Program-made: the position numbers and the translations under genes | Shown here: positions 1 through 61,725 of the stretch, piece by piece | Numbering within the stretch: position 1 is the first letter of the stretch | Layout: the number at the start of each line of letters is the position of its first letter | The notes under the pieces: model-generated | Seen by the model: only the letters and a program-made list of their open reading frames with translations | Told to the model about the DNA's origin: nothing | Database searches by the model: none | Source of the DNA: a virus | Taxonomy: Duplodnaviria; Caudoviricetes | IMG/VR virus record: IMGVR_UViG_3300043409_000886 | Span: 1-61,725 of that record | DNA: 61,725 nucleotides | Direction: 5' to 3' (one strand)

Positions 1-195
1 GCGGGGCCGCCGTATTGGCACGCATCTTGCTAGGCAAGCAAGTATTGTGCCAATCTGTTTGGCGCGCGTTGGCACGCATCTTGCTAGGCAAGCAAGTATT
101 GTGCCAATCTGTTTGGCGCGCGTTGGCACGCATCTTGCTAGGCAAGCAAAGACCGTGCCAAGGTGGCACCGCGGTGGGCCGGTGGGAAAGTGGGC
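1..195. repeat. Terminal overlap with 61585-61725 (circular contig); this copy has one extra 54-bp unit
   Basis: 61585-61725 (141 nt) equals 1-195 with one 54-bp unit removed. Confidence 0.9.
15..160. repeat. 54-bp tandem repeat (about 2.7 units), each with two convergent sigma54-type sites
   Basis: Unit starts at 15, 69, 123: TTGGCACGCATCTTGCTAGGCAAGCAAGTATTGTGCCAATCTGTTTGGCGCGCG. Confidence 0.95.
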
Positions 196-219
196 AGGCG
201 GGCTGGCACGGTTCTTGCT
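16..219. promoter_or_regulatory. Array of sigma54 (RpoN) -24/-12 consensus sites
   Basis: TGGCAC-N5-TTGCT at 16-31, 70-85, 124-139, 204-219 (+) and 37-52, 91-106, 145-160 (-). Confidence 0.75.
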
Positions 220-267
220 ATCTGTTACTACCCGGCGCGCCGGCAGTGTGCGGTAGGCGCACACAGG

Positions 268-297
268 CAATGTGACGTACAGCGTCACATTGTGACG
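268..297. promoter_or_regulatory. Overlapping palindromes, putative operator
   Basis: CAATGTGACG-N5-CGTCACATTG (268-292) overlapping CGTCACA-T-TGTGACG (283-297). Confidence 0.4.
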
Positions 298-369
298 TTA
301 TGCGCACGCGAGGCGACGCACCATTGTGGTGCGGCTGGCAATGTGCGAATCCACCCCATCGCCGCTCCC

Positions 370-426
370 AATGCTGCACCGCGGCGAAGTGTATACGAAA
401 AACCCATATAATACCAACCCACAACA
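370..426 (+). promoter_or_regulatory. Early promoter/leader repeat, copy 1
   Basis: GCGGCGAAGTGTATACGAAAAACCCATATAATACCAACCCACAACA with TATAAT at 407-412; identical 57 bp at 1521-1577. Confidence 0.8.
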
Positions 427-440
427 ACGGAGCAGACCAC

Positions 441-794
441 ATGAATATCGAATTGAACATCGGCCTTGACATCCCCGGCGCAACGAACACCCCGGCCAGC
501 CGCGACATGCTGGCCCTGCGCGCCACGGCCTACCTGAGCGCCGCCTTCGCGGGCGTGGCCGTGCGCCGCTACGAGTCGTCCTACGAGCAGGATGGCGCCA
601 CCGTGACCGAGGCCGGCATGGCGGTCCGCCTCACCGCCGAGCGCCCGGTCGACTGGATGATCGCGGGCCTGTCCGCCATCCTGTCGCAGGACTGCATCGG
701 CGTGCTCGACGCCGACACCGGCGCCGGCGCGCTGGTCGGCCCTAAGGCGGCGGAGTGGGGCGACTTCAACCCCGGATACTTCAACAGGTTTTAA
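441..794 (+). CDS. Putative SAM lyase (T3 SAMase-like) anti-restriction protein
   Basis: GGAG RBS, ATG at 441; YEQ..TE..M.VR...LSQDCIGV....GALV parallels T3 SAMase YRE..TEE..VRV...EQDCVLV....AGLV; first early gene. Confidence 0.5.
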   Translation: MNIELNIGLDIPGATNTPASRDMLALRATAYLSAAFAGVAVRRYESSYEQDGATVTEAGMAVRLTAERPVDWMIAGLSAILSQDCIGVLDADTGAGALVGPKAAEWGDFNPGYFNRF

Positions 795-806
795 GGCGGA
801 CAATTT

Positions 807-833
807 GGCAGGGCATCCCATGGGTGCCCTGCC
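807..833. terminator. Intergenic GC-rich hairpin
   Basis: GGCAGGGCA...TGCCCTGCC, no U-tract. Confidence 0.35.
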
Positions 834-864
834 GAGTCATTCCACCACAACAATGGAGCACCAC

Positions 865-1047
865 ATGTTTAAATACATCGCAATGTACAACGGCAAGCAA
901 ATTGAGGTTGCCGCCGACACGTCCTACCGCGCGCAAGTCGACGCCGTGGCGCAATTCAAAGCCCCGAAAAGCAAGGCGCACATGGTGCACGTGTACCGCG
1001 TCGTCGACGACATGGACCAGCACGTCCAGCACGTCATAACCAACTAA
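865..1047 (+). CDS. Hypothetical early protein
   Basis: GGAG RBS then ATG at 865; in-frame part of ORF 805..1047. Confidence 0.75.
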   Translation: MFKYIAMYNGKQIEVAADTSYRAQVDAVAQFKAPKSKAHMVHVYRVVDDMDQHVQHVITN

Positions 1048-1059
1048 ACGGAGCACCAC

Positions 1060-1521
1060 ATGTTTAAATTCCAACAGGCCGACCCCAACACCAATTGGAT
1101 GGACCGTAACACCTGCGTCCCCCGGGCGCTGGCCCTCGCCACCAAGACGGACTACGACACCGTTTTTCTGGCGTGCAAGGACGCCGGCAGGCCGTACCAG
1201 CGCGGCATGTACTATGAGCAGATCGACCGCGCACTGCAGACCCTGACCGGCGACCCGTGCACCAAACTGGTGCACGCCCCGGTGCAGGGCAAGTACGTCG
1301 AGGTCACCACGCGCCGCTCGCGCTACTACGGAGGCGCAGAGACCCGTTGGCAGAGTCTGACCCCGACCTTCGCGCAGTTCGCGGCCAGCAACCCAACCGG
1401 GCGCTTCATTGTCCTCCGCAAGGGCCACGCGGTGGCACTGATAAACGGCACGTTTTTGGACAGCGCCGCCCGCACCTGCGGCCCCCGGGCGCGCGTGACC
1501 GCGTGGTGCCGGGTGGCCTGA
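1060..1521 (+). CDS. Hypothetical early protein with possible Cys-His-Asp (papain-like) triad
   Basis: NTCVPRALA ... GHAVALING.FLDS; RBS GGAG. Confidence 0.6.
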   Translation: MFKFQQADPNTNWMDRNTCVPRALALATKTDYDTVFLACKDAGRPYQRGMYYEQIDRALQTLTGDPCTKLVHAPVQGKYVEVTTRRSRYYGGAETRWQSLTPTFAQFAASNPTGRFIVLRKGHAVALINGTFLDSAARTCGPRARVTAWCRVA

Positions 1522-1577
1522 ATGCTGCACCGCGGCGAAGTGTATACGAAAAACCCATATAATACCAACCCACAACA
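1521..1577 (+). promoter_or_regulatory. Early promoter/leader repeat, copy 2
   Basis: Identical to 370-426; starts at the stop codon of the upstream gene. Confidence 0.8.
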
Positions 1578-2128
1578 TGGAGCAAAAAATCATGCAGACC
1601 AAAACAGATAACGCGGCCGAGGTCGGCCAGCACGTGTTCGAGCGCAGCGGGTGCGGCGTCGGACCCTTCCGGGTGATAGGCGTGTTCTCGGACGTCGGCC
1701 CGCACAGGTACCCGCAGGCCAACGGGACCGTGATCGAGATCGGCTACCCGGGTCAGGCCATGGGCGTCTGCGCCCACTGCGGCACCGGCATCGCCGACTG
1801 CTACAAGATTCAGGACGCGAATGGCAAGACGTTCGTTGTCGGCAGCTCCTGCGTGTACAAGACGGGCGACGACGGCCTGATCCGGTCCTACAAGGCCAGC
1901 CGCGAGGTGCGCGCCTTTGCGGCGGCAAAGCGTGACCTGTTGGCGGCGAGGAAGGCCGACGAATTAACGGCCCTGATCGCGGCCAACCGCGACGCGCTGT
2001 CAAAAATGGCCTCGCCGAACAGCACCGCCAGCCTGCTGCAGTACCTCGAGCGAGTGATACCCATGTGCGGCGCCGCCGGCCGCGCGCGGTACCTGAAGCT
2101 CACCAAGTGCAGGCTCGCCGCCGGGTAG
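1577..2128 (+). CDS. Hypothetical protein with Zn-finger-like motifs (true start may be 1592)
   Basis: CAHCG ... VGSSCV. Confidence 0.7.
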   Translation: MEQKIMQTKTDNAAEVGQHVFERSGCGVGPFRVIGVFSDVGPHRYPQANGTVIEIGYPGQAMGVCAHCGTGIADCYKIQDANGKTFVVGSSCVYKTGDDGLIRSYKASREVRAFAAAKRDLLAARKADELTALIAANRDALSKMASPNSTASLLQYLERVIPMCGAAGRARYLKLTKCRLAAG

Positions 2129-2173
2129 CGGCGAAGTGTATACGAAAAACCCATATAATACCAACCCACAACA
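2128..2173 (+). promoter_or_regulatory. Early promoter/leader repeat, copy 3
   Basis: 46-bp identical core beginning at the TAG of the upstream gene. Confidence 0.8.
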
Positions 2174-2184
2174 TGGAGCACACA

Positions 2185-2382
2185 ATGGACCATTCCCCAG
2201 AAGTTAAACTCGAGCGCCTCCGGGCGCAGCTCGACATCCTGACCGCCAAGCGCGACAGCGTGGCACGCACCCACGGGGGCGGCACCCGCCTCCTGCTGGC
2301 CAACCTCGCGATGAACGACATCGAGTACGCCATCTGGCGCCTGCAGCGCGAGCAGCATATTTACTGGCTGCAGAGCGCGTGA
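2185..2382 (+). CDS. Hypothetical early protein
   Basis: GGAG RBS then ATG at 2185. Confidence 0.65.
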   Translation: MDHSPEVKLERLRAQLDILTAKRDSVARTHGGGTRLLLANLAMNDIEYAIWRLQREQHIYWLQSA

Positions 2383-2451
2383 GCCGGGAGGCCGCAGTAT
2401 TCTGGGCCTTCGTCGGCCTTTTCGTAATCGCCTATTTTTTTGGAGCATAAA

Positions 2452-2844
2452 ATGAAACACCTCACCGGACACACCTCCCCCGAGACGGCCTACATTGTCG
2501 CCGACTACCCGTACGGCTTCACCCTGCGCTGCCAGAAGCGTTACTGGATCGAGACCAAGCCCGGGCACGGGCAGCGCCTCGTGACACAAACCAGCAACCC
2601 GAAAAAGCCGGGCGTGGTCTGGAACAAGCCCAAGGCCGACACTTACTGGATGATCCTCGTGCTTGTGCAGGAGGACGACACCGGGTACATCAGCACCCGC
2701 GGCCTGCACACCTACGGCTGGGAGGAGAGCCTCCCCGCCTTTGACCGGGACTTCCCCGACCTGAGCGAGTACCAGACCGCACTGATCGGCAAAATGAAAA
2801 GCTACATATCCGTCCGCGACACCCGCAAGGCCGCCGCAGCGTAG
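2452..2844 (+). CDS. Hypothetical early protein
   Basis: GGAG RBS; DYPYGF.LRC..RYWIET...WNKPK..TY motif. Confidence 0.75.
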   Translation: MKHLTGHTSPETAYIVADYPYGFTLRCQKRYWIETKPGHGQRLVTQTSNPKKPGVVWNKPKADTYWMILVLVQEDDTGYISTRGLHTYGWEESLPAFDRDFPDLSEYQTALIGKMKSYISVRDTRKAAAA

Positions 2845-2889
2845 CGGCGAAGTACCCACAAAAAACCCATATAATACCCACCCACCACA
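2844..2889 (+). promoter_or_regulatory. Early promoter/leader repeat, copy 4 (diverged)
   Basis: GCGGCGAAGTACCCACAAAAAACCCATATAATACCCACCCACCACA; GGCG, TATAAT and spacing kept. Confidence 0.75.
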
Positions 2890-2900
2890 TGGAGCACACA

Positions 2901-3122
2901 ATGACACGAGCAGAATTCATCGAGCACTGGCTGTCCAACGAGGACGGCCGCAACGGGCTGGACTACCTCGAGGAGTCGATCGGGGAGCACGCCTCGCAGT
3001 ACGCGAGCGAGTGCGGCCTGTACGGCGACGCTGGGCCCGGGCAGGGCCTGCGCCTGCGCGAGATGCGCGCCACACTGGCGGGCGTCAAGCGCCAACTGCG
3101 CCGGCTGGGCGCCATCACCTGA
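2901..3122 (+). CDS. Hypothetical early protein
   Basis: RBS GGAG, ATG at 2901. Confidence 0.65.
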   Translation: MTRAEFIEHWLSNEDGRNGLDYLEESIGEHASQYASECGLYGDAGPGQGLRLREMRATLAGVKRQLRRLGAIT

Positions 3123-3206
3123 AGACGCAAAGCGTGGCGCCCCCGGGCGTCACCACTGTGCGCCGTCGGCTCACAACCGCAACACCACACCACTACGGAG
3201 AACATC

Positions 3207-3416
3207 ATGGCATTTGTCACAACCACACCCAGCACGTTAAACATTTCGGCGACCCTCCGCCTCTCGCGCGGGGAGGCACTGATCCTGATCGGCCACCTTG
3301 CGTCCGCCATCACGGCGGTGGAGTACTACAACTCGGACTACAACCTGCCGAGCTATGGCGACATCACGCCGGAGGCCGGGAGGCAGGTCGTCGCCATCAC
3401 CGTCACCGTCGCCTAA
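3207..3416 (+). CDS. Hypothetical protein
   Basis: Preceded by CA-rich leader repeat CTACGGAGAACATCATG. Confidence 0.65.
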   Translation: MAFVTTTPSTLNISATLRLSRGEALILIGHLASAITAVEYYNSDYNLPSYGDITPEAGRQVVAITVTVA

Positions 3417-3452
3417 GTAGACAACCCGCAACACCACACTACGGAGAACACC

Positions 3453-3728
3453 ATGCAAAACAAAACGTCATTCCAGCAGCCCTCACCTAACGCCGACGGC
3501 CTGTACGGCGTCCAGACGTGGAGCGCCGGCCCGATCTTCCCAGCCATTATCTACGTGCGTGAGCTCTACAGCGCCAACGCCCAGCCGCTGTTCCGCGAGT
3601 ACAAAATGACCCTCGACGGCGTAACAGACACCTACGCAACGCGCGAGGACGCCGAGCAGGCCGCGAGCTTCCTGCTCAACCACCCCACAAGCCGGGAGGC
3701 GCGCCGCGCCGAGGGCGCCGAGGCATGA
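3453..3728 (+). CDS. Hypothetical protein
   Basis: Preceded by CTACGGAGAACACCATG. Confidence 0.7.
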   Translation: MQNKTSFQQPSPNADGLYGVQTWSAGPIFPAIIYVRELYSANAQPLFREYKMTLDGVTDTYATREDAEQAASFLLNHPTSREARRAEGAEA

Positions 3729-4027
3729 GCCCCGGGTACAGCGCCACCCGGATGAACATGGACGCCGGGGTCACCCCGGCGCAGGGTCGGGTGGTGTTCC
3801 ACATTGAGCGCCTGTTCCGCAGCACCGGGGGCGGCGTCAAGGCGCACGGCACCTTCCTCGCCGCCTGCCGCGTCAAAGGCATCCCCTCCGCGGTGTCGGG
3901 CTACACCCCGACCCGTTGCGTGGAGGTCCTGCAACTGGTAGAATCCGCGTGCCGCCACCACGGCATGCACCTGTTCCGCGACGTCGGCACCGGCTGGCGT
4001 CAAATTAACTTGGAGGTATCAAAATGA
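3725..4027 (+). CDS. Hypothetical protein
   Basis: ATGA overlaps at both ends. Confidence 0.6.
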   Translation: MSPGYSATRMNMDAGVTPAQGRVVFHIERLFRSTGGGVKAHGTFLAACRVKGIPSAVSGYTPTRCVEVLQLVESACRHHGMHLFRDVGTGWRQINLEVSK

Positions 4028-4251
4028 ATTTGACCTATGCAGAAATACAGGCACTGCTGGCGCTGGTAGAGGCAATAGAAGAAATGTTCGCAGCGCCGCA
4101 ACACGATCGCGAAAACGGTGCCGCGTGGCTTAATGAAATTGCTGCCGCAAAATGGGAAAAAGAAAACTCATCACTACTTGCTGCTATGTATGTGCTAAGC
4201 GAGAAAACGGACGCGGTAACAGAGATGTTTAAACTGGAGGTATCAAAATGA
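4024..4251 (+). CDS. Hypothetical protein, AT-rich insert
   Basis: GGAGG RBS; flanked by 18-bp direct repeats. Confidence 0.7.
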   Translation: MNLTYAEIQALLALVEAIEEMFAAPQHDRENGAAWLNEIAAAKWEKENSSLLAAMYVLSEKTDAVTEMFKLEVSK

Positions 4252-4469
4252 ACCTGTTCAAAAAACAACCCGCCAAACCCGCCAACGAGTACCGCCCCGC
4301 CGAGGCCGTCCGCCTCGCCGGGGACCATTGGAGCACCGACCCGGCCGTGCGGGGTGTCAGCGCGGCGACGAGCATCGCCCTGCGCGACACGCCCCGCGAC
4401 GCGTCGGAGGCCTCAATCATGGGCCTGCTGGAGCGGGGAGTGATCCCCCGCGTCAGGGAGTACGTATGA
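4248..4469 (+). CDS. Hypothetical protein
   Basis: GGAGG RBS, ATGA overlap. Confidence 0.65.
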   Translation: MNLFKKQPAKPANEYRPAEAVRLAGDHWSTDPAVRGVSAATSIALRDTPRDASEASIMGLLERGVIPRVREYV

Positions 4470-4645
4470 ACAACATCGACCTGCAGGACTACCTGCCGTG
4501 GGTCGTCTGCGCCACCGTCTGGCTGGCCCTCGTGCCGGTCAGGCTGGTGATCCTGATGCTGCTCCCGGCCAACTCGGGGTACGCGTGGCACCCCTGCAAC
4601 AACCTCTGGCGCCGTGTGAAGTTTGATGGATACCACTGGTCATGA
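4466..4645 (+). CDS. Small membrane protein
   Basis: ATGA overlap; hydrophobic stretch LPWVVCATVWLALVPVRLVILMLL. Confidence 0.55.
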   Translation: MNNIDLQDYLPWVVCATVWLALVPVRLVILMLLPANSGYAWHPCNNLWRRVKFDGYHWS

Positions 4646-4809
4646 GCCGCACCACGCGGTACGGCATCTTGGACGACGCCGGGGAGGTGGTGCGCTGGGT
4701 AGACACCGAGCCCAACGGGCTGGAGTACATCTACTTGGCGCAGCGCGTCCCCCGGCAACCCAAGCGCCCCACGATCGACTGGCTTGCGTTTGAGCCAGCA
4801 CTGCTTTAG
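4642..4809 (+). CDS. Hypothetical protein (55 aa, not in ORF track)
   Basis: ATGA overlap; MSRTTRYGILDDAGEVVRWV...FEPALL*. Confidence 0.6.
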   Translation: MSRTTRYGILDDAGEVVRWVDTEPNGLEYIYLAQRVPRQPKRPTIDWLAFEPALL

Positions 4810-4845
4810 AATATCCACACCAACCACACCACTACGGAGAACACC

Positions 4846-5052
4846 ATGCACCCCGACACAATGCAACTGATCGACAACACCGAGGCCGACTGGAGCCACC
4901 ACGAGTTTTACGTGGACGGCAATGGGCAGTCACACCTCAAGCACCTGCGCTACGGGGACGACTACACCCTCGAGGAGGGCGACCTGCTCGACGCCGTCGA
5001 GGCCGTCCTGCGGGGCGACATCCTCGACTTCGGGGGTGACGATCGTGCTTAA
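4846..5052 (+). CDS. Hypothetical acidic protein
   Basis: Preceded by CTACGGAGAACACCATG. Confidence 0.7.
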   Translation: MHPDTMQLIDNTEADWSHHEFYVDGNGQSHLKHLRYGDDYTLEEGDLLDAVEAVLRGDILDFGGDDRA

Positions 5053-5236
5053 CTTTATTGGCTGGGCTTTGTTGTTGTGGTGCCTCTGGACCATCGAGCG
5101 GGTCGGCGTGAACGCCACGAGCCTCTGGCTGTCCGTTCTGGCCGTCGGCCTCCTGCTGCTCTCCTTTGCGGTCAGGGTGGGCACCAGTGCCTTGCTCTGG
5201 CGCCAGATCGGACGGGTGATAAACCGTGGCCGGTGA
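5045..5236 (+). CDS. Small membrane protein
   Basis: GTG start; two hydrophobic segments. Confidence 0.5.
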   Translation: MLNFIGWALLLWCLWTIERVGVNATSLWLSVLAVGLLLLSFAVRVGTSALLWRQIGRVINRGR

Positions 5237-5798
5237 GCGCACGGCGCTGGGTGACTACCTGCGCACCCTGCACAAGGTGCCCGTCCTCAAGCGCGAGGAG
5301 GAGGCGGAGCTTGGGCGCCGCGCGCAGCTTGGGTGCAAGCCAGCCCTTGACCTGCTGGTCACGCACAACCTGCGCTTCGTGGTCAGCACCGTCAAGGGCA
5401 TGCGGGACTGGGTCAACGTCAGCCTGCCCTACGACGACCTGATCGCCGCCGGCAACGAGGCCATGCTGGAGGCCGCCCGGTCGTGGGTCCCGACCCCCCG
5501 GGCGCGCTTCATCGCCTACGCCAAGCCCTTCATTTTGAGGGGCGTGGTGCGCGCGTGCGACAACGAGGGGAACACCATACGCCTCCCGGTGAATGTGTGC
5601 GAAGAGGTAAGGCTGATGAAGTACCACGAGAACGCCTTGGCGCAGGCCAACGGCGCGGAGCCCACGCAGGCACAGACCGCCGCGGCCATGGGCTCGACAG
5701 CCAAGCGTGTGGGGCAGCTGCGCGGGTTCATCATGCGCGAGCCCAGCAGCATCGAGCTACACCACGAGTCATCCAACGAGGAGCAGGAACATGAGTGA
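5226..5798 (+). CDS. Sigma70-family factor, regions 1.2-2-3 only (no region 4)
   Basis: YLRTLHKVPVLKREEEAELG (1.2), LVTHNLRFVVS (2.1), DDLIAAGNEAML (2.2), RFIAYAK (2.3), TIRLPVN and EPTQAQTAAAMG (3); ends at PSSIE plus an acidic tail. Confidence 0.9.
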   Translation: MAGERTALGDYLRTLHKVPVLKREEEAELGRRAQLGCKPALDLLVTHNLRFVVSTVKGMRDWVNVSLPYDDLIAAGNEAMLEAARSWVPTPRARFIAYAKPFILRGVVRACDNEGNTIRLPVNVCEEVRLMKYHENALAQANGAEPTQAQTAAAMGSTAKRVGQLRGFIMREPSSIELHHESSNEEQEHE

Positions 5799-6198
5799 CA
5801 GCAACAGCAACTACCTGAAGACACCCCCCAACTGGCGCTTTGACGTCGAGGCGGGGCACTACACCGACGAGGCCGAGAGGCTCGCGGGCAACCTATCTGA
5901 GAGTGTGGCGGCGCGCATGAAGGCACTTAACGCTAAGGGCTGGGCTGACGCCTGCGCGGCCACACCAACGGTCGACAACGAGGTGGTGAGGCCGGCGCAC
6001 TACACCCGCGGGGCGGTGGAGTGCATCGACGCCATCGAGGCTGCGCTTACCCCCGAGGAGTACCGTGGCTACCTGAAGGGCAACGTGCTGAAATACTTCT
6101 GGCGCGAGCGCGACAAGGGCGGGCTGCAGTCGATCCAGAAGGCGGAGTACTACACGCAGCGTCTAATCAAATTACTGGGGGAGAAACAAGATGAATAG
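5791..6198 (+). CDS. DUF3310 (T7 gp1.7-like nucleotide kinase family) protein
   Basis: VVRPAHYTRGAVECIDAI...GYLKGNVLKYFWRERDKGG. Confidence 0.8.
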   Translation: MSDSNSNYLKTPPNWRFDVEAGHYTDEAERLAGNLSESVAARMKALNAKGWADACAATPTVDNEVVRPAHYTRGAVECIDAIEAALTPEEYRGYLKGNVLKYFWRERDKGGLQSIQKAEYYTQRLIKLLGEKQDE

Positions 6199-9038: not shown

Positions 9039-9787
9039 TATTCTTGGACGTACTTGTTGTGTTTTGAGCTGTTCTCGGAAGCAGTTATGATCTGAAGATT
9101 TGCAGCAATGTGCAGACCCGACACATTGCGACCCTGCAAAGGGATCACGTGGTCCACGGCGTGTTGTATGCCCGTCACCCTCGTGCGCTCAGCGCACAGC
9201 ACATAGACCGCCTCAATCTCGGCTCGCTGCTCCTGTGTCAACCAAGGTGGTGTCCGCTGCAGCTTGGCCGCACGGCGGCGCGCGGTTTTTGCGTTGATTT
9301 TGCCGGGGTGCGCCTTTGCGTATTTGGCTCGGTAGGCGGCAGCTTTTTCCACGTTTGCTGCGCGATACACGGCGTGGCGGGCGGCAACCTTCGCGACGTT
9401 GGCCTCATAATACTTGGCGTTGTGGGCGGCAGCCTTCTCCGGGTTTGCCCTACGATATTCGGCTTGATAGGCGGCAACCTTCTCGACGTTGGCCACACGA
9501 TACAAGGCTCGTTGGGCGGCAACCTTCTCGACGTTGGCCACACGATACAAGGCTTGCTGGGCGACAACTTTCTCAAAACTTTCAGGGCTAAGCCAACCCT
9601 CATAAAGAAGCCCGGTCTTTTTAGCTATTGCGGCTCCATACCCTTGGAACCTGCGCCCATCAGCCCGGGTGTCCCCATACCTGAACGGCACCCCAGTGGC
9701 CGGGTTAATGCGCCTGAGCGATACAGACGGCTTCAAGCCCTCAATGTTGACGGGCAAGGATTCAGGTAAAACGGGAGTGTGGTTCAA
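9038..9787 (-). CDS. HNH homing endonuclease with 15-aa helical repeats
   Basis: C-terminal VDHVIPLQGRNVSGLHIAANLQIITASENSSKHN; central YRVANVEKVAA repeats. Confidence 0.85.
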   Translation of the reverse strand: MNHTPVLPESLPVNIEGLKPSVSLRRINPATGVPFRYGDTRADGRRFQGYGAAIAKKTGLLYEGWLSPESFEKVVAQQALYRVANVEKVAAQRALYRVANVEKVAAYQAEYRRANPEKAAAHNAKYYEANVAKVAARHAVYRAANVEKAAAYRAKYAKAHPGKINAKTARRRAAKLQRTPPWLTQEQRAEIEAVYVLCAERTRVTGIQHAVDHVIPLQGRNVSGLHIAANLQIITASENSSKHNKYVQE

Positions 9788-10825: not shown

Positions 10826-13165
10826 ATGCAAAACACCACACAGACACAGACAAACAACAAACCGACCGCACTGCCGGTCCAGTTCGGCAACATCCCGCTA
10901 CCCCTCAGGCAGGTGCCCCGTTGGGTGCTCTGGAGCCACGTGCTGGTCGGGGAGGGCGACAAGTCCCGCTGGTCGAAGCTCCCCCTCCAAGCCTCAGGCC
11001 GCTCCGCCTCATCGACCAATCCAGCCACATGGGCGGGCTATATTGAAGTCGAGGCGGCGTACGCCTCCGGGAATTTTGACGGGGTGGGGTTCGTGTTCGA
11101 TGGGACCGACCAGCTGGTCGGGATCGACCTCGACGACTGCTACGACACCGCCACCAACCGTTTCACAAATGCTGCACTGCAGCAAATAGCCACCTCCGTG
11201 GAGGGTTACATGGAGGTCAGCCCCTCAGGGACGGGGGTGAAGCTCTTCACCTTGGCCGACCTGCCGGGGGCGCACGTCGACCACACCTTGGGGCTGGAGG
11301 TCTACCCCAAGGGGCGCTACTTCACGGTGACGGGTCACAAGCTCTCGGGTGAGATACCGACCACCCCGCAGGACCTGACGAGCCACATACCGGCACGCGC
11401 GGTGAAGCTCTCGGGTGACGACTTCGCGGACTACTCGCCCCCCGTGGAGGGGTACGACATGCCACGGGTGCGGGACGAGGTGCTCTCCCAGATCGACCCG
11501 GACTGTGGCTACACGGACTGGCTCACCGTCGGGATGGCGCTGCACCACCAGTTCGGTGGCTCGGTGGAGGCACAGGAGCTCTGGGACGAGTGGTCCTACC
11601 AAGACGGGGCCTGCGGTGCCTACACCCCGGGGGCCTGCGAGCGGAAGTGGTCCAGCTTCACCCGCAAGGGCGGCGCCACCCTGCGGAGCCTGACCTTCAA
11701 GGTCTCCGCGGCCAAGCGCACCGTGGCGCTCGCCCGGGGCGAGGTCGTCCTCGACGGGGGTCAGCCCCTCGTGCACGCCCGGGAGTTCCTGAGCTCCATG
11801 TACGCCTCCGAGGAGGGCACCAAGCTGGTGCACTACGCGGACGACTTCTTTATCCACGTCGGGACGCACTACGAGGAGATCGAGGAGGCCACGATACGGT
11901 CGCACCTGTACCGCTTCTTGGAGAAGTGCAAGACGCAGGACAAGAAGGGGAACGTCGTCCCGTTCAGGGCGCAGCCGGCCACCGTGACGGCCGGCCTCGA
12001 CGCCATCAAGGCCCTGACGCACTTGGCCAACCAGCCCAACACCCGCCCGCCCGTCTGGCTGGAGGGCTACGCCGCCACCCGCCCCCCGGCGGCGAAGCTG
12101 ATAAGCCTCCAGAACGGGCTGTTCCACTTGGAGGACGGCCTGCTGATGCCGCACAGCTTGGGGTTCTTCACGCAGAACAGCCTCCCCTTTGGCTGGGAGC
12201 CGGGCGCCACGTGCCCGGAGTGGAACAAGTTCTTGGGCGACATCTGGGGGGACGACGCCGAGTCGATACGGCTCCTGCAGGAGTTCTTCGGGTACATCCT
12301 CTCGGGTGACACCCGGCAGCAGAAGCTCCTGAACGTGATTGGACCGCGCCGGTCGGGGAAGGGCACCATCAACAAGGTGCTGGTCTCCCTGCTGGGGCAG
12401 CACAACACGGCCGCCCCGCAGCTGGAGGAGCTGTGCGACACCTTCGGCCTGCAGCCGTGGCTCGGGAAGCTCCTCGCCAGCTTCACGGACGCGCGCGCCC
12501 CCTCACGCAACACGGGGGGCATCGTCTCCCAGCTGCTGCGGATCGTGGGTGGCGACACCGTGACCGTGAACCGCAAGAACAAGGAGGCGTGGCACGGTTA
12601 CCTCCCGGCGCGGATCGTGGTCTACTCCAACGAGGCGCTGCAGTTGGCGGAGAACTCGAACGCGCTGACGGGTCGCATGATGGTCCTGAAGATGAGCAAC
12701 AGCTTCTACGGCAGGGAGGACATCGACTTGGCCACCCGGCTGGGGACGGAGCTGCCCGGGATATTCAACTGGGCGATGGAGGGGCAGCGCAACAGGCTGC
12801 AGCGTGACGGGCAGCGGTTCATACAACCCGCCACGGGGCGCGAGATGCTGGAGCTGATGGAGGAGATCGGTAACCCGATTGGCTCCTTCCTCGAGCGTGT
12901 GCTGGTGTTCGACACGGACAGCGTGGTGGAGAAGGACCACGTCTTCGCGTGCTACAAACGCTGGGCGCTGTCCAAGAACATCAACCCCGGGACGGACCTC
13001 TCCTTCAAGCGGCGCTTCTTGGCCGCCACGTCGGACAGGCGCGTCATATCCGCGCTCGACCGGAGCGGGGGCCTGCAGCGTCACGTCTACCGCGGGGTCA
13101 AGTTCAGCGACGCCGCACAGAAATTTGTCGACTCACTTGAGGCTTTCAACGAGGAGGTATTTTGA
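10826..13165 (+). CDS. Primase-polymerase/helicase (AEP-type N-term, PriCT-2, D5-like SF3 helicase)
   Basis: GIDLDDC, EVSPSGTG, EVY.KGRYFTVTG; W..VGMALH..WDEWS; Walker A GPRRSGKGT. Confidence 0.9.
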   Translation: MQNTTQTQTNNKPTALPVQFGNIPLPLRQVPRWVLWSHVLVGEGDKSRWSKLPLQASGRSASSTNPATWAGYIEVEAAYASGNFDGVGFVFDGTDQLVGIDLDDCYDTATNRFTNAALQQIATSVEGYMEVSPSGTGVKLFTLADLPGAHVDHTLGLEVYPKGRYFTVTGHKLSGEIPTTPQDLTSHIPARAVKLSGDDFADYSPPVEGYDMPRVRDEVLSQIDPDCGYTDWLTVGMALHHQFGGSVEAQELWDEWSYQDGACGAYTPGACERKWSSFTRKGGATLRSLTFKVSAAKRTVALARGEVVLDGGQPLVHAREFLSSMYASEEGTKLVHYADDFFIHVGTHYEEIEEATIRSHLYRFLEKCKTQDKKGNVVPFRAQPATVTAGLDAIKALTHLANQPNTRPPVWLEGYAATRPPAAKLISLQNGLFHLEDGLLMPHSLGFFTQNSLPFGWEPGATCPEWNKFLGDIWGDDAESIRLLQEFFGYILSGDTRQQKLLNVIGPRRSGKGTINKVLVSLLGQHNTAAPQLEELCDTFGLQPWLGKLLASFTDARAPSRNTGGIVSQLLRIVGGDTVTVNRKNKEAWHGYLPARIVVYSNEALQLAENSNALTGRMMVLKMSNSFYGREDIDLATRLGTELPGIFNWAMEGQRNRLQRDGQRFIQPATGREMLELMEEIGNPIGSFLERVLVFDTDSVVEKDHVFACYKRWALSKNINPGTDLSFKRRFLAATSDRRVISALDRSGGLQRHVYRGVKFSDAAQKFVDSLEAFNEEVF

Positions 13166-18126: not shown

Positions 18127-18202
18127 TGTAGGTAAGCAAGGGGCAGACGCGCCGCCCCCCACTGAAGTGCGGCGCTTTCGTAGTTACTAGGAGATTTAAA
18201 CC

Positions 18203-18718
18203 ATGGCACAATCCACAAAAGTAAAAGTCGTGACCGGCAAGGTACGTTTTAGCTACGCCAACGTGTTCACCCCTGTCGCCTCTGAAGAGGGCAAGACCCC
18301 CAAGTTCTCGGTCTCGCTCATCATCCCCAAGTCCGACAAGGAGACCATCAAGAAGATCGAGGCAGCCTACGAAGAAGTCAAGGCTGGCGCCGCGGCGTTC
18401 TTCGGTGGTACGGTGCCCAAGGGTCTGAAGGGCGGCCTGCGCGACGGTGACGAGGAGAAGGACGACGCGGCCTACGCCAACGCGTACTTCATCAACGCCA
18501 ACTCGGTGCAGCGTCCGGGACTCGTCGATGGCGACATGAACGCCATCATCAGCCCCGAGGACTTCTACTCAGGCTGCTACGGCCGCGCCTCCCTGACGTT
18601 CTACCCGTACAACCAGCAGGGCAGCAAGGGCATCGCGGTGGGACTCAACAACCTCCAGAAGACGGCGGACGGCGACAAACTCGGCGGCGGCTCCTCGGCG
18701 GCTCAGGACTTCGCTTAA
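18203..18718 (+). CDS. ssDNA-binding protein (DUF2815, gp2.5-like)
   Basis: VRFSYANVF, LRDGD, FYSGCYGRAS, GLNNLQK..DG..LGG. Confidence 0.85.
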   Translation: MAQSTKVKVVTGKVRFSYANVFTPVASEEGKTPKFSVSLIIPKSDKETIKKIEAAYEEVKAGAAAFFGGTVPKGLKGGLRDGDEEKDDAAYANAYFINANSVQRPGLVDGDMNAIISPEDFYSGCYGRASLTFYPYNQQGSKGIAVGLNNLQKTADGDKLGGGSSAAQDFA

Positions 18719-38854: not shown

Positions 38855-40021
38855 TTAGAACCCTGTGCGGTAGGGGCTGATAAGACCCTGCTGCTGGGGC
38901 TGCATTGCGCCGGGTGCTGGTGTCATGCCCGGCTGGGGTATGATGCCCGTGGCCGCCGCGCCCATCCCACCGGAGGGCTGCGCGGGTCCCATGCCGCCCA
39001 TGGGGATCGCGCCGCCGTCGGCGAAGCCTGCGGGGCGCTGTGGTGCCATTGAGGGCGCCGCTGGGGGCATGCCCGGGCGCTGCATCTGTTGCTTCCTTGC
39101 CATCAACTTGGCGAGGATCGCGCGCTCCGCGGGGGAGATGGTGCCCATGCCGGACATGCCGTTGTTGGCGTCCTGCGAGTCGGGGTAGGTCATCGCGTTG
39201 CCGTAGGCGTTGCCCGAGGCGCGCTGCTGATATGCGTCCTGCACCTGCTGCATCATCTCGGGGGTCATGCTGCCGCCCTCGGCGAAATTGTATTGGCTCA
39301 TATCCTTTTGGGTCGTGTTCTCCCCCTCGCCGGTGTTTATAGACTGCGGCTTCGAGTAGGCCTCGCCGCGCTTTGCGGCCGCCGCGGCCTGAATCGCCTC
39401 GTGCTGCGCGTCGGTGCTGCCGGCGCGTCGTTTGCCGCTAAATGAATTTAAATAGTCCCGCAGGTTGCTGTAGCCGGAGGCTTGCCGACTCTCTAGCGAC
39501 ATCGCGCCCGGGCGCCCGCCGGCGGCGAACGAGGGCGTCTCCTTGCCCTTGACCGCGGCCTTGGAGGGGGCGTCGGCCTTCTTGTCGCCCGTGGGCTTGA
39601 CCTTGGTCATCCCGCCGGCCTTGAGCTTCACCGCCGCGGAGGGGGCGCAGGCCTTCTTGTCGCCCGTGGGCTTGACCTTGACCATCCCGCCGTCCTTGAA
39701 CTTCATCGCCGCCGAGGGGGCACAGGCCTTCTTGTCGCCCGTGGGCTTGACCTTGGTCATCCCGCCGTCCTTGAACATGTTGACGGTGCCCTTCTCCTTC
39801 TTGGCGCGGCCACCCCGGCGCAGCTTGGAGAGGTCTGTCTTGGCGCCCTCGTGGGACTGCTTGTCGTGCATCGAGAAGGCCTTCTTGACGATCTTCTTGT
39901 CCTGAGCCACGTCCTGCGAGCTCTCGGAGGTCTCGCTGTGGCGGCTCTTATACACCGACCCACCCTCCTTGTAGCAGTTAATGTCGGACTTCATCTTGGG
40001 AAGGCAGTTAAATTCTTTCAT
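38855..40021 (-). CDS. Low-complexity virion protein with three 21-aa repeats and multiple xxxGG motifs
   Basis: (FKDGGMTKVKPTGDKKACAPSAA)x3; GAGG RBS. Confidence 0.7.
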   Translation of the reverse strand: MKEFNCLPKMKSDINCYKEGGSVYKSRHSETSESSQDVAQDKKIVKKAFSMHDKQSHEGAKTDLSKLRRGGRAKKEKGTVNMFKDGGMTKVKPTGDKKACAPSAAMKFKDGGMVKVKPTGDKKACAPSAAVKLKAGGMTKVKPTGDKKADAPSKAAVKGKETPSFAAGGRPGAMSLESRQASGYSNLRDYLNSFSGKRRAGSTDAQHEAIQAAAAAKRGEAYSKPQSINTGEGENTTQKDMSQYNFAEGGSMTPEMMQQVQDAYQQRASGNAYGNAMTYPDSQDANNGMSGMGTISPAERAILAKLMARKQQMQRPGMPPAAPSMAPQRPAGFADGGAIPMGGMGPAQPSGGMGAAATGIIPQPGMTPAPGAMQPQQQGLISPYRTGF

Positions 40022-58129: not shown

Positions 58130-59563
58130 TTACTGGGCGTACGGGTTCACGCGCTTCCTGCGGTCGTCCGCGTACTCGAAGTCCCTCGCCGGGAGCATGT
58201 CAAGCTGGAGCCACCCGGAGTCTCGGAGGATGCGCAGGGCCTGTGAGAGGCTGTCGACGTAGTCGTCGTGCCCCCCGGACTCGGGGAAGGAGCAGACTTG
58301 GCGCATGAACCGCTTTGACCAGTCCGCGAACTGCCCCGTGAGCTTGGCGTCCTCGGGTATGTAGATTTTTCCCTTCGCTATCAGGGGGGCCACGATGTTC
58401 ATGCGCTGCACCTTGTCCGAACGGCCGGGGTTGTACGACCTCACCGCTATCCCGGAGCCTTGGAGCTCCTGTATCAGGGATATGCCGGCCGACTTGTCCT
58501 CGATCAGCGCCAAGTCCGACTTGCGCCCCTTCCCGAACGTGTTGTCCGCCCCGTACACGACCTCCTTGTGGTCCGCGATGACGCGCTTCCTCAGCTCGGG
58601 GTAGGACATGTGGGCATCCCACGCGTCGAGCAGGATGGCGCACGTCCCGACGTCCTGATTCTCAAATATCCCCCACACCGTGCAGGCCGTGGGGTCGTTC
58701 TGGGTCTTCTCGGAGGTGGCGGGGTCGTAGCTTGCGATGACGTACTCCAGTTTGGGCGTCTCCCTCTTCGCGGGCCACATCTTGAACCACTTCCGCTTGA
58801 CTATCCCCACGTCCTCGGGGTCGAGCACCTTCCCCTCGATCTCCTGTTTCCCTAAGTCGGTACCCTCGTAGCTCTCGAGGGCGTTAAAGAAGCTCTTCGA
58901 CAGGTTCGCGCGGTTGGCGTAGGAGGAGACGTTGACCATATACACATTACCCCCCACCTTGCCCTCCACGAGGTCTACGATCAGCTCCTTGGGCTTGGGG
59001 GTGGTGGTGATGATCTGTTGCACACTCGCGAGGCGGGGGTCCTTCAGCCTCAGGGTGAACTGAATCTGGTCGTAGGAGTCGTCTAGGTACTCCCACGCCG
59101 CCAGCTCGTCAAGGTGCGCCCCGTGCCACTGGCTGCCGCGGTACCGTTCGGGCTCGGAGGCCGGTATGCCGCGTATCAAGCTGCCGTTCTTTAGCTCTAT
59201 CTCAAAAAGAGATTTATTGTAGCTCTTTATCAGGCTTGGGGGGATGATGTTTAGCAGCCCCGAGTCCCCCTCGAAGTTAGTCGCCCTGATGTCTGAGCTT
59301 GTGGGGGCCGCCACAAGCCACCGGGTGTTGCCGAACATGGCCGCCCGGAGGCCAATCCAGTTAGAGGCTGTGTGGGTCTTGCCCGCCCCCCGGCCGGCGC
59401 ACATAAAAAAGGTGTCGTACTCCTCCTCGGGCTCTTTTTGGTGCGGCATGGCGGTCAGCTCCCACCTCACACGCCATAGCGCAAGGTCAAGCTGCTCCTT
59501 GGGCCAGTGTTTATTGAGCTTTGCGAAGGTTGCTAAGGTTTTTTCCTGATTTTTGGTCAACAT
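58130..59563 (-). CDS. terL: Terminase large subunit
   Basis: Walker A AGRGAGKT, Walker B HLDELAAW, TTTPKP, nuclease SYDPA and HDDYVDSLSQ; ATG at 59563 overlaps the upstream stop. Confidence 0.92.
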   Translation of the reverse strand: MLTKNQEKTLATFAKLNKHWPKEQLDLALWRVRWELTAMPHQKEPEEEYDTFFMCAGRGAGKTHTASNWIGLRAAMFGNTRWLVAAPTSSDIRATNFEGDSGLLNIIPPSLIKSYNKSLFEIELKNGSLIRGIPASEPERYRGSQWHGAHLDELAAWEYLDDSYDQIQFTLRLKDPRLASVQQIITTTPKPKELIVDLVEGKVGGNVYMVNVSSYANRANLSKSFFNALESYEGTDLGKQEIEGKVLDPEDVGIVKRKWFKMWPAKRETPKLEYVIASYDPATSEKTQNDPTACTVWGIFENQDVGTCAILLDAWDAHMSYPELRKRVIADHKEVVYGADNTFGKGRKSDLALIEDKSAGISLIQELQGSGIAVRSYNPGRSDKVQRMNIVAPLIAKGKIYIPEDAKLTGQFADWSKRFMRQVCSFPESGGHDDYVDSLSQALRILRDSGWLQLDMLPARDFEYADDRRKRVNPYAQ

Positions 59564-60558
59564 ACGGCTATGAATCCCTCCCCTGCAAGAAACGTGCCAC
59601 CCGCCTCGATGTGGATGCAGGGTTCTGGCTTGAACGTGTACACTTTTTTGATAAATCTGCGCATGTGACGGGGTACCTGTCGTTTTTTTACACGATTTTC
59701 GACAAGTTCGATGTCCGTCCTGAAGGTCAGGCGCCACTGCCGGCGGTACTGCACCTCAAAGAGGCGGGTCTTTATGCCCAAGGACTCACAAATTCCTTGC
59801 ACCCGGGTCAGGAAGCGCCAATCGGGGTCACGGAACTGGTACTCGTCCTCCTCTTGGACGTAGGTGTAGGGCTTGGCGCAGATTATGCCGCGCAACAGGT
59901 CGTGCCTCTGCTCCAGCGACCCCCTGAGGTACTCCTCGGGTATGACGGTGGGTATCCTCGCGTAGTTTGTCAGGAAGGCGTTGGGCACCTTGGGGGCTAT
60001 CTCGTAGTAGGGCTTCTTCTTGCGGAGGGTCCTGTAGCCAAACCCACGCAGGCGCTCGGTGACGTACTCGAAGTTGCTCTCGTGCAGGGGCAGCTTGCGG
60101 CTACGGCCGCGCCTCCCGAACCACAGACCCACAATAAACGGCGGGACGGGAAGGTCCCGGGTGGGGTACTGGAGTGGCTTGGCGTTGGGGATGGAGTACT
60201 GCGCCCGGCCGTCACGGTGCAGCAGCCCCTCCTCCATCAGCTCGGGGGCGGTGCGGCGCTTGAGTGCCCGCGTGAAGTGCGTCCGCTGCGCCCCGGGCCG
60301 TGCCCGGTAGGCTAGGTGCTCGCATAGGTTGATGCGGTACTTCTTGTCCTCCAGATGCAGGGCCATGTTCTTGTCGCCCTGCACCCCCAGACCGTCGTCA
60401 AGCTCCACCCAGAAAGTCTCAGCAGGGGTGTAGGCCTGCACCAAGGTGATTTGCTTGGGGAGGCCGTCCGCCCCGAAGACGTAGTCCCCGATCACTAGGT
60501 CGCGGGCGCTCATCCACGCCCCGGGGGTGGGTATCAGGGTCAGGGCGCTAATGGCCAT
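59557..60558 (-). CDS. Free-standing degenerate intein (Hint + LAGLIDADG-like), no exteins
   Basis: AISALTLIPTPGAW...DLVIGDYVFGADG.P; LPVPPFIVGLWFG; IPEEYL.GS.EQR.DLL.G; CIHIE..TFLAGEGFIAVC*. Confidence 0.8.
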   Translation of the reverse strand: MAISALTLIPTPGAWMSARDLVIGDYVFGADGLPKQITLVQAYTPAETFWVELDDGLGVQGDKNMALHLEDKKYRINLCEHLAYRARPGAQRTHFTRALKRRTAPELMEEGLLHRDGRAQYSIPNAKPLQYPTRDLPVPPFIVGLWFGRRGRSRKLPLHESNFEYVTERLRGFGYRTLRKKKPYYEIAPKVPNAFLTNYARIPTVIPEEYLRGSLEQRHDLLRGIICAKPYTYVQEEDEYQFRDPDWRFLTRVQGICESLGIKTRLFEVQYRRQWRLTFRTDIELVENRVKKRQVPRHMRRFIKKVYTFKPEPCIHIEAGGTFLAGEGFIAVC

Positions 60559-60742
60559 ACCTCACCCGCATACGTACCGCGTTACTGACGCGCGCCCTCT
60601 CGGAGGCCGCGGGGGAGAGCCAACGCTCCCCGTAGTACCCGTCAGACCGAAGGGTGCCGGTGTAGTTGAAGAACACGTACCCATCCTGCCGTATGTCACC
60701 GCGGCGGTATGGCCTGCCAGTCCGTAAGCTGTTTCGTTTCAT
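60548..60742 (-). CDS. Small protein homologous to the N-terminal domain of the HNH endonuclease (likely leaderless)
   Basis: TG.P.R.GD.R.DG..F..Y.......G...E.WLSP shared with 9038-9787. Confidence 0.7.
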   Translation of the reverse strand: MKRNSLRTGRPYRRGDIRQDGYVFFNYTGTLRSDGYYGERWLSPAASERARVSNAVRMRVRYGH

Positions 60743-60748
60743 AACCTA

Positions 60749-60776
60749 CTTATACAAAAATGTGTACACACCCGCC
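60749..60776 (-). promoter_or_regulatory. Phage promoter class GGCG-N18-YATAAG
   Basis: GGGGCG-N18-TATAAGT; ATG 6 nt downstream. Confidence 0.7.
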
Positions 60777-60839
60777 CCAGCCAAAGTTTATTTTCATACC
60801 AAGGGGCGGTTTTACGATTGTAAGGGAAGTAACAGAAGA

Positions 60840-60968
60840 CAGGGTCTAAATGAGTTACTCCCAGTATATTATTTATCTTTTTAAATTTTAAATTAAATAA
60901 ATCAAATATACTATCACTACCCATACTTAACATACGCAAAACTGTCGACTTCTCGACACCTGTGTACA
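60840..60968. repeat. Inverted copy of 9950-10079
   Basis: Reverse complement matches apart from the AT-rich core and one substitution. Confidence 0.9.
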
Positions 60969-61029
60969 CAAATGTCAGATAAACGCAAAACTTTTGTGGA
61001 GCGCAGTTTGGAAAATACGCTCCACAAAG

Positions 61030-61521
61030 GTTAGTGAGCACTAACTAACATAACCAAACAGTACGCAAAAGTACCGGGGAAGTGTCGCATTTCGCGTATG
61101 GCTTGAACTGTGGCGCTCCGCATAAACAATATTGTTTATGTTTTAAAGCCTCGGCAGTTCTAAACAAGTGACAAGGTTATGCAACATCTGGCTCGTAACC
61201 GTGGGTGCGCATGGCAACAAGCCCAATGTTATCGTGCGCCGGCAGAGTAACCTGTGTACACATTTCTCTTTTTACTCTGCAAAAATTACAAAAAAATTTG
61301 TAGGGGGTCGAGTTTCGTGGGGGAATTGGACGGGCTTGGTATCTGTGTGGGGCCCTCCCTCTCGCCGTCGGGTACCTCAAAAAGGGGTGTCGGGTTATCA
61401 ACAAGCCCCCCTCATAGGTTAGTGAGTACTCACTAACTGATAGTGAGCCCTAACTGGGGATGTGGGCGCTCACTAACTGATAGTGAGCCCTAACTGGGTA
61501 GGTGAGTGAGTGCTCACTTAC
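61030..61521. promoter_or_regulatory. Cluster of SlmA-binding-sequence-like palindromes
   Basis: GTGAGTACTCAC at 61422-61433 and variants at 61034, 61443, 61462, 61483, 61506. Confidence 0.7.
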
Positions 61522-61533
61522 AAAGCGGCGGGC

Positions 61534-61570
61534 TGGCACGCATCTTGCTAGGCAAGCAAGTATCGTGCCA
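61534..61570. promoter_or_regulatory. Convergent pair of sigma54 consensus sites
   Basis: TGGCACGCATCTTGCT (+, 61534-61549) and TGGCACGATACTTGCT (-, 61555-61570). Confidence 0.75.
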
Positions 61571-61584
61571 AGGTGGCTAGGCCG

Positions 61585-61725
61585 GCGGGGCCGCCGTATT
61601 GGCACGCATCTTGCTAGGCAAGCAAGTATTGTGCCAATCTGTTTGGCGCGCGTTGGCACGCATCTTGCTAGGCAAGCAAAGACCGTGCCAAGGTGGCACC
61701 GCGGTGGGCCGGTGGGAAAGTGGGC
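61585..61725. repeat. Terminal overlap with the window start
   Basis: Equals 1-195 minus one 54-bp unit. Confidence 0.9.

Follow-up and report, generated by a model that had tools for sequence, protein, structure and literature searches.

What does a phage do with a dense cluster of sigma-54 type promoter elements? The question is raised by the IMG/VR virus record IMGVR_UViG_3300043409_000886, a tailed phage, which was analysed over its whole stretch of 61,725 bp (hereafter the window). At its two ends, the window carries an array of sites with the sequence TGGCAC-N5-TTGCT, the pattern of the -24/-12 element of sigma-54 (RpoN). Alone among bacterial sigma factors, sigma-54 is unable to start transcription without an ATP-driven activator. 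Judged by their sequence, the repeats are very probably genuine binding sites for the sigma-54 holoenzyme of the host. What such arrays are for is a separate matter; we tentatively favour the reading that they are bidirectional promoters gated by an enhancer-binding protein of the host.

An exact pattern scan found 13 matches to TGGCAC-N5-TTGCT in the window (0.02 expected), all at the two ends, and none of 100 shuffled sequences reached 13. The matches on the plus strand include those starting at 16, 70, 124, 204 and 61534, and those on the minus strand lie at 37–52, 91–106, 145–160 and 61555–61570. Four further matches at 61600–61690 are duplicates and not new sites, as they belong to an assembly overlap: 61587–61725 is identical to 1–193 minus one 54-bp unit. 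The unique array consists of three to four face-to-face pairs and one single site. In pair P0 (61534–61570), a plus-strand site (61534–61549) faces a minus-strand site (61555–61570). Pair P1 (16–52; sites 16–31 and 37–52) is repeated at 61600–61636 through the end overlap, and pair P3 (124–160; sites 124–139 and 145–160) at 61654–61690. Pair P2 (70–106) is an exact tandem copy of P1, present at the window start only and absent from the window end and from contigs of the sequencing runs X1 and X2. P1 to P3 are borne by a tandem repeat at 15–149 (period of 54 bp, 2.5 copies, 100% match); many array sites are thus copies of one another and not independent. Each 37-bp palindrome is made of two face-to-face -24/-12 cores, with 5 bp between the TTGCT elements and 7 bp between the TTGC cores. 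The single site (204–219, plus strand) points to the early genes. The -12 convention predicts its start near 231, which leaves ~210 nt to the first ATG on the early side, at 441.

All site coordinates of the initial annotation were reproduced by the scan, as were its variable spacers and its 5-bp gap. Its count of nine sites holds for the three tandem units at the window start; with the two units found at the window end and in the X1 and X2 contigs, the number is seven. The array or the single site was present in independent contigs, which came from three runs belonging to three studies.

The record is a whole IMG/VR virus with a GC content of 0.60 and a CheckV completeness of 95%, and its IMG/VR class is 'linear'. 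Logan contigs of X1 and X2 extended beyond the last base of the window by one letter, followed by 24 nt identical to 61527–61550 and then by the sequence of window 221–250. The same continuation over the window end was found in X3, a related strain from the third study. Because the X1 and X2 contigs cross the last base into the sequence of 221–250, the record is a circular or terminally redundant genome that was cut within the array, and the window ends are an assembly cut and not genome ends. The 24 nt in the X1 and X2 contigs stand at the position of the single site (204–219). Its spacer may read there as in P0 and not as in the window, which would be a strain or assembly difference.

The array sits in a non-coding region of ~1.3 kb that separates two diverging gene blocks. 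The early/replication block runs rightward from 441 to ~23,358 and comprises small early proteins, a sigma-70-family factor, primase, helicase, exonuclease, ribonucleotide reductase and a family-A DNA polymerase. The packaging/structural block runs leftward from ~60,742 down to 23,362, with a 64-aa protein, a 333-aa protein, the large terminase, the portal and structural genes. Both site orientations face real genes in the window, with leaders of ~210 nt on the early side and ~810 nt on the late side. An earlier suggestion that the array tethers RNA polymerase to the first-injected DNA found no support, because the window ends are an assembly cut and the clusters of complete relatives lie mid-record. 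The complete relatives G001, G002 and G003 had three, two and eight matches, respectively, in each genome all in one such cluster.

Conservation was assessed in a family of 69 loci sharing the large terminase at 66–100% identity, 38 of which (the window counted in) had enough upstream sequence. At least two sites were found 0.4–1.25 kb upstream of the conserved 333-aa open reading frame (ORF) in 12 of the 38 loci, and the downstream coding parts of the relatives were not enriched, with scattered single matches only. In the upstream regions of the relatives of the window, the N5 spacing occurred 37 times, compared with 0–3 times for each of the other spacings from N2 to N9. The initial annotation had named beforehand, as evidence that would speak against sigma-54, relatives that keep the repeat without the GG-N10-GC spacing; the relatives kept the spacing. 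Positions that were not part of the search pattern were evaluated in 51 non-redundant family sites. There was a pyrimidine before TGG in 43 of the 51, a G after TGGCAC in 42, TT in the spacer in 37 and 38, a C before TTGC in 42 and an A or T after TTGC in 42. These positions agree with the RpoN holoenzyme motif quoted in PMC8743547, TGGCACnnTTnTTGC. With the spacing kept in relatives and the unsearched positions following the consensus, the proposal that the motif is an RpoN -24/-12 element under selection is strongly supported.

The gap between the partners of a pair ranged from 3 to 8 bp, the N5 spacing was invariant, and the N5 spacers of the two arms were no more alike than those of shuffled partners. 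Since the gap varies, the N5 is fixed and the arm spacers are unlike, the selected unit is the single site and not a symmetric dimer operator or a hairpin; neither a fixed half-site spacing nor symmetry over the full repeat, as in a dimeric-repressor operator or hairpin, was found. The orientation of the sites was biased: in nine related lineages, 27 sites pointed toward the late genes and 11 toward the early genes.

The arrangement is not limited to this family. Face-to-face pairs with a gap of 3–8 bp were found in at least 119 IMG/VR contigs, compared with a single contig for a reversed-letter control; back-to-back pairs were found in 38 contigs and direct tandem pairs in 30. The 119 loci among the matches listed fell into at least 53 DNA-level clusters with a GC content of 0.28–0.68, and 13 of these loci had proteins in common with this phage. 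In 108 non-identical palindromes of other phages, a purine followed TGGCAC in 215 of 216 arms, and an A or T followed TTGC in 183 of 216, neither of which had been searched for. The commonest partner gaps among the matches listed were 4 and 5 bp (21 and 19 DNA clusters). A single pair was present at 51 of the 119 listed loci, and 53 had 4–12 sites. In the complete 44-kb genome G409, all 10 matches lay within 510 bp. In unrelated phages, an array of up to 12 sites is usually found once in a genome. When the gap of the palindrome pattern was fixed, a scan of IMG/VR that did not include the window's own record gave no matches. The face-to-face pattern was not found in 401 bacterial genomes sampled from the phylum of the metagenome-assembled genome (MAG) G006, which is not proof of virus specificity, as the IMG/VR count is a lower bound and the sizes of the collections differ.

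The gene context of the unrelated arrays resembled that of the window in several cases. At L085, the array separates leftward genes for DNA polymerase, primase-helicase and thymidylate synthase from rightward genes for endolysin, terminase and portal, and at L111, the terminase gene likewise lies to the right of the array. A gene of the large-terminase family was located ≤2.5 kb from the palindrome in 12 of the 53 DNA clusters listed and was transcribed away from it in eight examples listed. The context nevertheless varied: by a crude classification of the nearest ORFs, the flanks were divergent at 31 of 71 non-edge loci but in only 6 of 33 DNA clusters among the matches listed.

We then come to the activator. 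The initial annotation had seen no activator ATPase in the phage, and profile searches agreed with it: in the window, there were no matches to PF00158 at E≤1, and none to the sigma-54 DNA-binding domain PF04552 or to the Fis-type helix-turn-helix domain PF02954. PF00158 was likewise absent from ten other phage records, G001–G005 (one sub-threshold match of 11.7 bits) and G407–G411; two of the latter are complete genomes of unrelated phages that bear arrays. The transcription factor that the phage does have, a sigma-70-family factor with regions 1.2 and 2 (5226–5798, plus strand), is not of the sigma-54 type.

Candidate sites for a host activator were found in the form of NtrC-type boxes. The NtrC box is quoted as TGCACCAnnnTGGTGCA in PMC8743547. 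The window has a perfect 17-bp NtrC-box palindrome at 1258–1274, within the early ORF 1060–1521; an NtrC-box-like palindrome at 317–333, in which the core GCACCA-N3-TGGTGC is intact and two outer bases differ; and a third box with an intact core at 11816–11832. In total, four window positions (317, 1258, 11816 and 19880) matched TGCACCA-N3-TGGTGCA with at most two mismatches, compared with 0.29 expected. Perfect or near-perfect boxes were present upstream in 23 of the 38 family loci, and none occurred in the downstream coding parts. At L062, two perfect NtrC boxes, with centres near -121 and -78, accompany the late-proximal sigma-54 site; at L041, a box lies near -128; and the MAG contig L079 has two early-directed sites, each with a box near -53. 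Paired NtrC sites ~80–150 bp upstream of a sigma-54 site were not found in the window; L062 and L041 approximate this arrangement.

From these data, each pair may be read as a compact bidirectional promoter. Transcription would start ~12 nt past each GC and proceed outward, with the two starts ~16 bp apart in the window; across phages, the predicted distance between starts is 23 minus the gap by the -12 convention. One direction would lead to the early/replication genes (from 441) and the other through an AT-rich region to the packaging/structural genes (from 60742). As the phage has no activator ATPase of its own, closed complexes would wait for an enhancer-binding protein of the host, which in this phage family would likely be NtrC. 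The array would then couple transcription at the early/late junction to the physiological state of the host, for instance its nitrogen status, and the firing of a nearby putative origin might follow the state of the host as well. Several tandem units would raise the capture of scarce holoenzyme, and two holoenzymes on one pair would probably exclude each other. We infer binding to the array, activation by NtrC, transcription and the link to replication; the motif, its spacing and consensus, its conservation, position and orientation were read directly from the sequences. Host-gated bidirectional promoters fit the data because of the late-biased orientation (27:11), the NtrC boxes and the recurrent place upstream of terminase.

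A number of observations weigh against promoters of this kind. The NtrC-like boxes of the window are single, and their distance from the sites ranges from ~190 bp to over 1 kb. In many relatives, either the sigma-54 sites or the NtrC boxes occur without the other motif. Sigma-54 sites alone were found at L015, L017–19, L032, L058, L060 and L070. NtrC boxes alone, or together with one weak sigma-54-like site, were found at L021–27, L037, L039, L040, L042/43, L045, L047, L049, L054, L055, L063 and L066. Neither motif was present at L020, L028, L031, L034, L065 and L073, and the MAG contig L078, which is outside the count of 38 loci, has NtrC boxes and no sigma-54 site. PF00158 was absent from the window and from the ten other phage records. 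The late-directed sites and the first conserved late gene are ~810 nt apart, and a sigma-70-like promoter is nearer to that gene (60892–60863, minus strand, ~120 bp before it). Near-consensus sigma-70 promoters also lie between the array and the late genes at L085 and L111, and in the L097/L141 lineage, the array is antisense to both flanking ORFs. Promoters rarely need up to 9–12 copies. The only RNA run (X24) gave one contig, at 58184–58334, away from the array. The runs containing the sequence were freshwater, river, lake and sediment metagenomes. In favour of promoters, two related phage contigs were binned in a MAG that has rpoN and is labelled as coming from an uncultured beta-proteobacterium, but binning of this kind is weak evidence for a host.

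Host-gated promoters in this arrangement can be compared with four known systems. Promoters of the glnAp2 type with NtrC enhancers share the GG-N10-GC spacing and the extended consensus with the phage sites, and the 17-bp boxes lie nearby in the phage family (~-120 and -80 at L062). In contrast to them, the phage sites form dense arrays, mostly of overlapping face-to-face pairs, in a lytic-type phage without an activator gene; the leaders are long (~210 and ~810 nt), and many relatives have either the promoter or the enhancer motif, not both. Bidirectional promoters arising from sequence symmetry have been described for sigma-70, where the cores on opposite strands are interleaved and the starts diverge by 15–20 bp. 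The opposite-strand cores of the phage would also give diverging starts (23 minus the gap), whereas they are of the sigma-54 type, their -12 elements do not overlap and the units stand in tandem. Cyanophage genomes carry sites for the host nitrogen regulator NtcA, which are single and located at promoters. There too, phage DNA bears sites for a nitrogen-stress regulator of the host, although the regulator and the host group are different, and this phage has arrays of sigma-54 cores instead of single sites. The T7 promoters A1–A3 are tandem sigma-70 early promoters at the mapped leading end; they act in one direction and are self-sufficient. As in T7, several promoters for the host polymerase would head a phage transcription unit within a few hundred bp, but here they are of the sigma-54 type, point in two directions and would depend on an activator.

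A second explanation, put forward in the initial annotation as a decoy, is a sponge for sigma-54. Non-transcribing sites of maximal affinity would soak up the holoenzyme as the genome replicates and silence the enhancer-dependent regulons of the host; in the relatives, NtrC boxes would soak up NtrC likewise. We regard this as possible, though less probable than gated promoters. All 13 window sites have perfect cores. The copy number varies, with two to three units in this record and two to nine sites among relatives, and the distance to the genes is not conserved. No phage activator was found in the window or in the ten other records, and unrelated phages have up to 12 tightly packed sites once per genome. 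Among relatives, NtrC boxes partly take the place of sigma-54 sites and vice versa, as would be expected of two ways of blocking one circuit. A sponge fits some facts better than promoters do: the consensus is perfect, the copy number is high and variable, an activator is missing, the distance to genes is loose and, most of all, relatives tend to have either sigma-54 sites or NtrC boxes. Multicopy sigma-54 promoters or their enhancers are known to have a titrating effect. However, a sponge does not account for the bias of orientation toward late genes in relatives (27:11) or for the NtrC boxes at enhancer-like distances at L062 and L041. Overlapping facing sites probably cannot both hold a holoenzyme, which would waste capacity, and a general benefit of silencing sigma-54 is not established.

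DNA loci that titrate a protein are known: datA of Escherichia coli, with its DnaA boxes, and the iteron arrays of plasmids. Like these, the phage arrays consist of clustered high-affinity sites for one protein, and their effect would scale with copy number. Two things set them apart: what they titrate would be the holoenzyme of a sigma factor, a protein with no natural sponge known to us, and the titration itself is a proposal. It is possible, though less likely than not, that many unrelated phages independently acquired sigma-54 arrays, and within the family NtrC boxes too, as sponges that strip the cell of its ~100 holoenzymes once the genome has replicated.

A third explanation is architectural, and we consider it unlikely. 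Here, bound sigma-54 holoenzyme would be a landmark, a roadblock or an origin-activating complex at an origin or packaging site, and messenger RNA would not be the point. The DNA beside the array is indeed AT-rich: the DNA that separates the first conserved late gene from the array (60743–61533) is non-coding, and the GC content of 60743–61586 is 0.46, compared with 0.60 for the genome. Perfect DnaA boxes occur in the corresponding region of relatives (two each at L015, L017–19 and L032, three at L060, and one each at L045, L055, L067 and L070), while the window has just a DnaA-box-like word with one mismatch (61395–61403). There is one cluster per genome, located near terminase genes in 12 of the 53 DNA clusters listed, but this association is equally expected of a late-operon promoter. 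The array of the L097/L141 lineage, which points against its flanking genes, suits an architectural function. We know of no case in which sigma-54 holoenzyme takes part in replication or packaging.

It is very unlikely that the sites are operators of a phage-encoded DNA-binding protein and merely resemble the sigma-54 consensus. When phage control regions contain palindromic repeats, these are mostly operators, and a second palindrome family lies beside the array. These TAGTGAG palindromes are at 61419–61520 and also at 61031–61048, and all six TAGTGAG words of the window fall in 61032–61487. The family is kept in relatives, with three to eight repeats beside the sigma-54 sites. Against an operator, at least 53 DNA clusters with a GC content of 0.28–0.68 share this bipartite motif, and only 13 of the 119 loci listed have proteins in common with this phage. 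Such recurrence across unrelated phages is explained by a conserved host factor and not by many unrelated phage proteins. Moreover, the partner gap of 3–8 bp is variable, the arm spacers are asymmetric and the unspecified flanks follow the sigma-54 consensus.

Chance or a collapsed-repeat assembly artefact has a negligible probability and is excluded except for the exact copy number: the window ends differ in the number of 54-bp units and short-read assemblies mishandle repeats, but 13 matches were found with 0.02 expected, contigs came from three runs in three studies, the arrays of relatives are non-identical, and the reversed-letter control gave one contig as opposed to at least 119.

Further features were noted in the control region. 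On the early side, there is a TATAAT word at 407–412, and a simple scan called no sigma-70 promoter in 1–1300. In relatives, the TAGTGAG palindromes interleave with NtrC boxes and TGCA-rich palindromes (L015, L019, L032, L039 and L045). Palindromes like aatgataatcattctcatt (L025), which resembles a Fur (iron-regulator) box, occur in the AT-rich part upstream of the late genes at L021, L025, L032, L039, L045 and L078. With Fur-like palindromes, DnaA boxes, NtrC boxes and sigma-54 sites, the region looks like a collection of sites for host factors. A GC-rich block (GGGGCCCCAC..AGA..AAG), followed by a long T/A run, is located at ~61320–61350 of the window when read on the minus strand. The distant relatives L039, L047, L049, L058, L060 and L078 keep the GGGGCCCCAC block in the interval that separates the palindromes from the first late gene, and the block may be a candidate packaging (cos/pac) or origin element. 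At gathering thresholds, Rfam gave no match in the control region; its only match was the DUF2815 RNA motif at 18140–18205 (plus strand; 43.2 bits, with a gathering score of 41.2), just upstream of the ORF 18203–18718.

The genes next to the control region were also annotated. The first early gene (441–794, plus strand) belongs to phrog_11722 and has a weak S-AdoMet lyase match below the Pfam cut-off. On the late strand, the first gene kept in relatives encodes 64 aa (60548–60742, minus strand; 32 tblastn hits). It is followed by the conserved 333-aa ORF (59557–60558, minus strand), which has weak PHROG hits to the terminase large subunit and overlaps the large terminase gene, a 535-aa ORF (58130–59737, minus strand). 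An isolated exact sigma-54 type site (59585–59599, minus strand) lies in the overlap of these two ORFs and is shared by L009 and L011, relatives with 97% identity. It just precedes the point where the terminase alignments of relatives start. In the Caulobacter phage RLK, the terminase is annotated as two pieces with a methyltransferase gene between them. Two other tandem repeats of the window, at 9326–9574 (period of 45 bp, 5.5 copies, 74% match) and 39563–39776 (period of 75 bp, 2.9 copies, 92% match), are apparently within coding regions.

Among the unrelated phages, the largest lineage comprised 34 loci with a GC content of 0.40–0.48, including L084, L085, L088, L092, L110, L119, L120, L153 and L198. 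Its arrays have a 47-bp period and up to 12 sites, and the alternating pairs are followed by sites in the same direction, ~27 bp apart, that point to replication genes. At L139, L144, L194, L196 and L201, 10–18 sigma-54 type sites are spread over ~13 kb with no single cluster, and sigma-54 promoters may serve many transcription units in these phages. Three protein families were considered as a conserved partner gene and rejected, since none was linked to sigma-54. The GP88/phrog_1392 family recurred near palindromes in four DNA clusters and phrog_2554 in three, among the matches listed. The third is an unnamed family of 140–180 aa with a GGVPRLA.WA..NP..FYKL core, encoded 0.45–1.5 kb from the palindrome and transcribed away from it in five DNA clusters (L130, 5828–6283; L109, 3652–4068; L142, 10252–10677; L145, 4698–5231; L158, 4966–5322; L166, 2783–3166). 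It had no Pfam, PHROG or PDB profile match; Atlas returned viral hypothetical proteins and a weak DUF5681 lead. The family may be a candidate small terminase subunit.

No close cultured relative was found for this phage by nucleotide comparison: megablast of window 1–6000 and blastn of window 1–230 against cultured phages gave no match. By the large terminase, the closest cultured phages were the Caulobacter phages RLK, KcrB, RW and GB2A (42–44% identity), and an uncultured spring phage reached 50% identity. No sites were found in RLK or in the spring phage. The L085 lineage also had no close cultured relative; in blastn, the one hit of the L085 array was 27 nt long, with an E-value of 0.2, and was treated as chance. 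We know of no lytic phage whose control region has been shown to centre on sigma-54. A full-text literature search, with subscription journals and supplements outside its range, did not turn up any account of phage genomes with arrays of sigma-54 sites. PMC3391216 and PMC7693777 mention sigma-54-type regulators or sigma-54-like proteins that are encoded by phages. The sigma-54 element is of a known kind, and its arrangement, the phage setting and the spread across phage lineages appear to be new.

In this phage, an array of perfect-consensus sites lies at the early/late junction of a genome without an activator, and the design recurs in at least 53 DNA clusters of uncultured phages. Such arrays could serve as very tight, bidirectional, enhancer-gated promoter parts. 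If they are a sponge, they would be a counter-measure of bare DNA, free of protein, that switches off enhancer-dependent stress and nutrient responses of the host. If they are promoters, the phages would hand a key developmental decision to a signalling ATPase of the host, linking the nutrient and stress state of the host to the phage programme. The recurrent arrays, often upstream of terminase, point to an undescribed way in which phages read or blunt a signalling circuit of their hosts.

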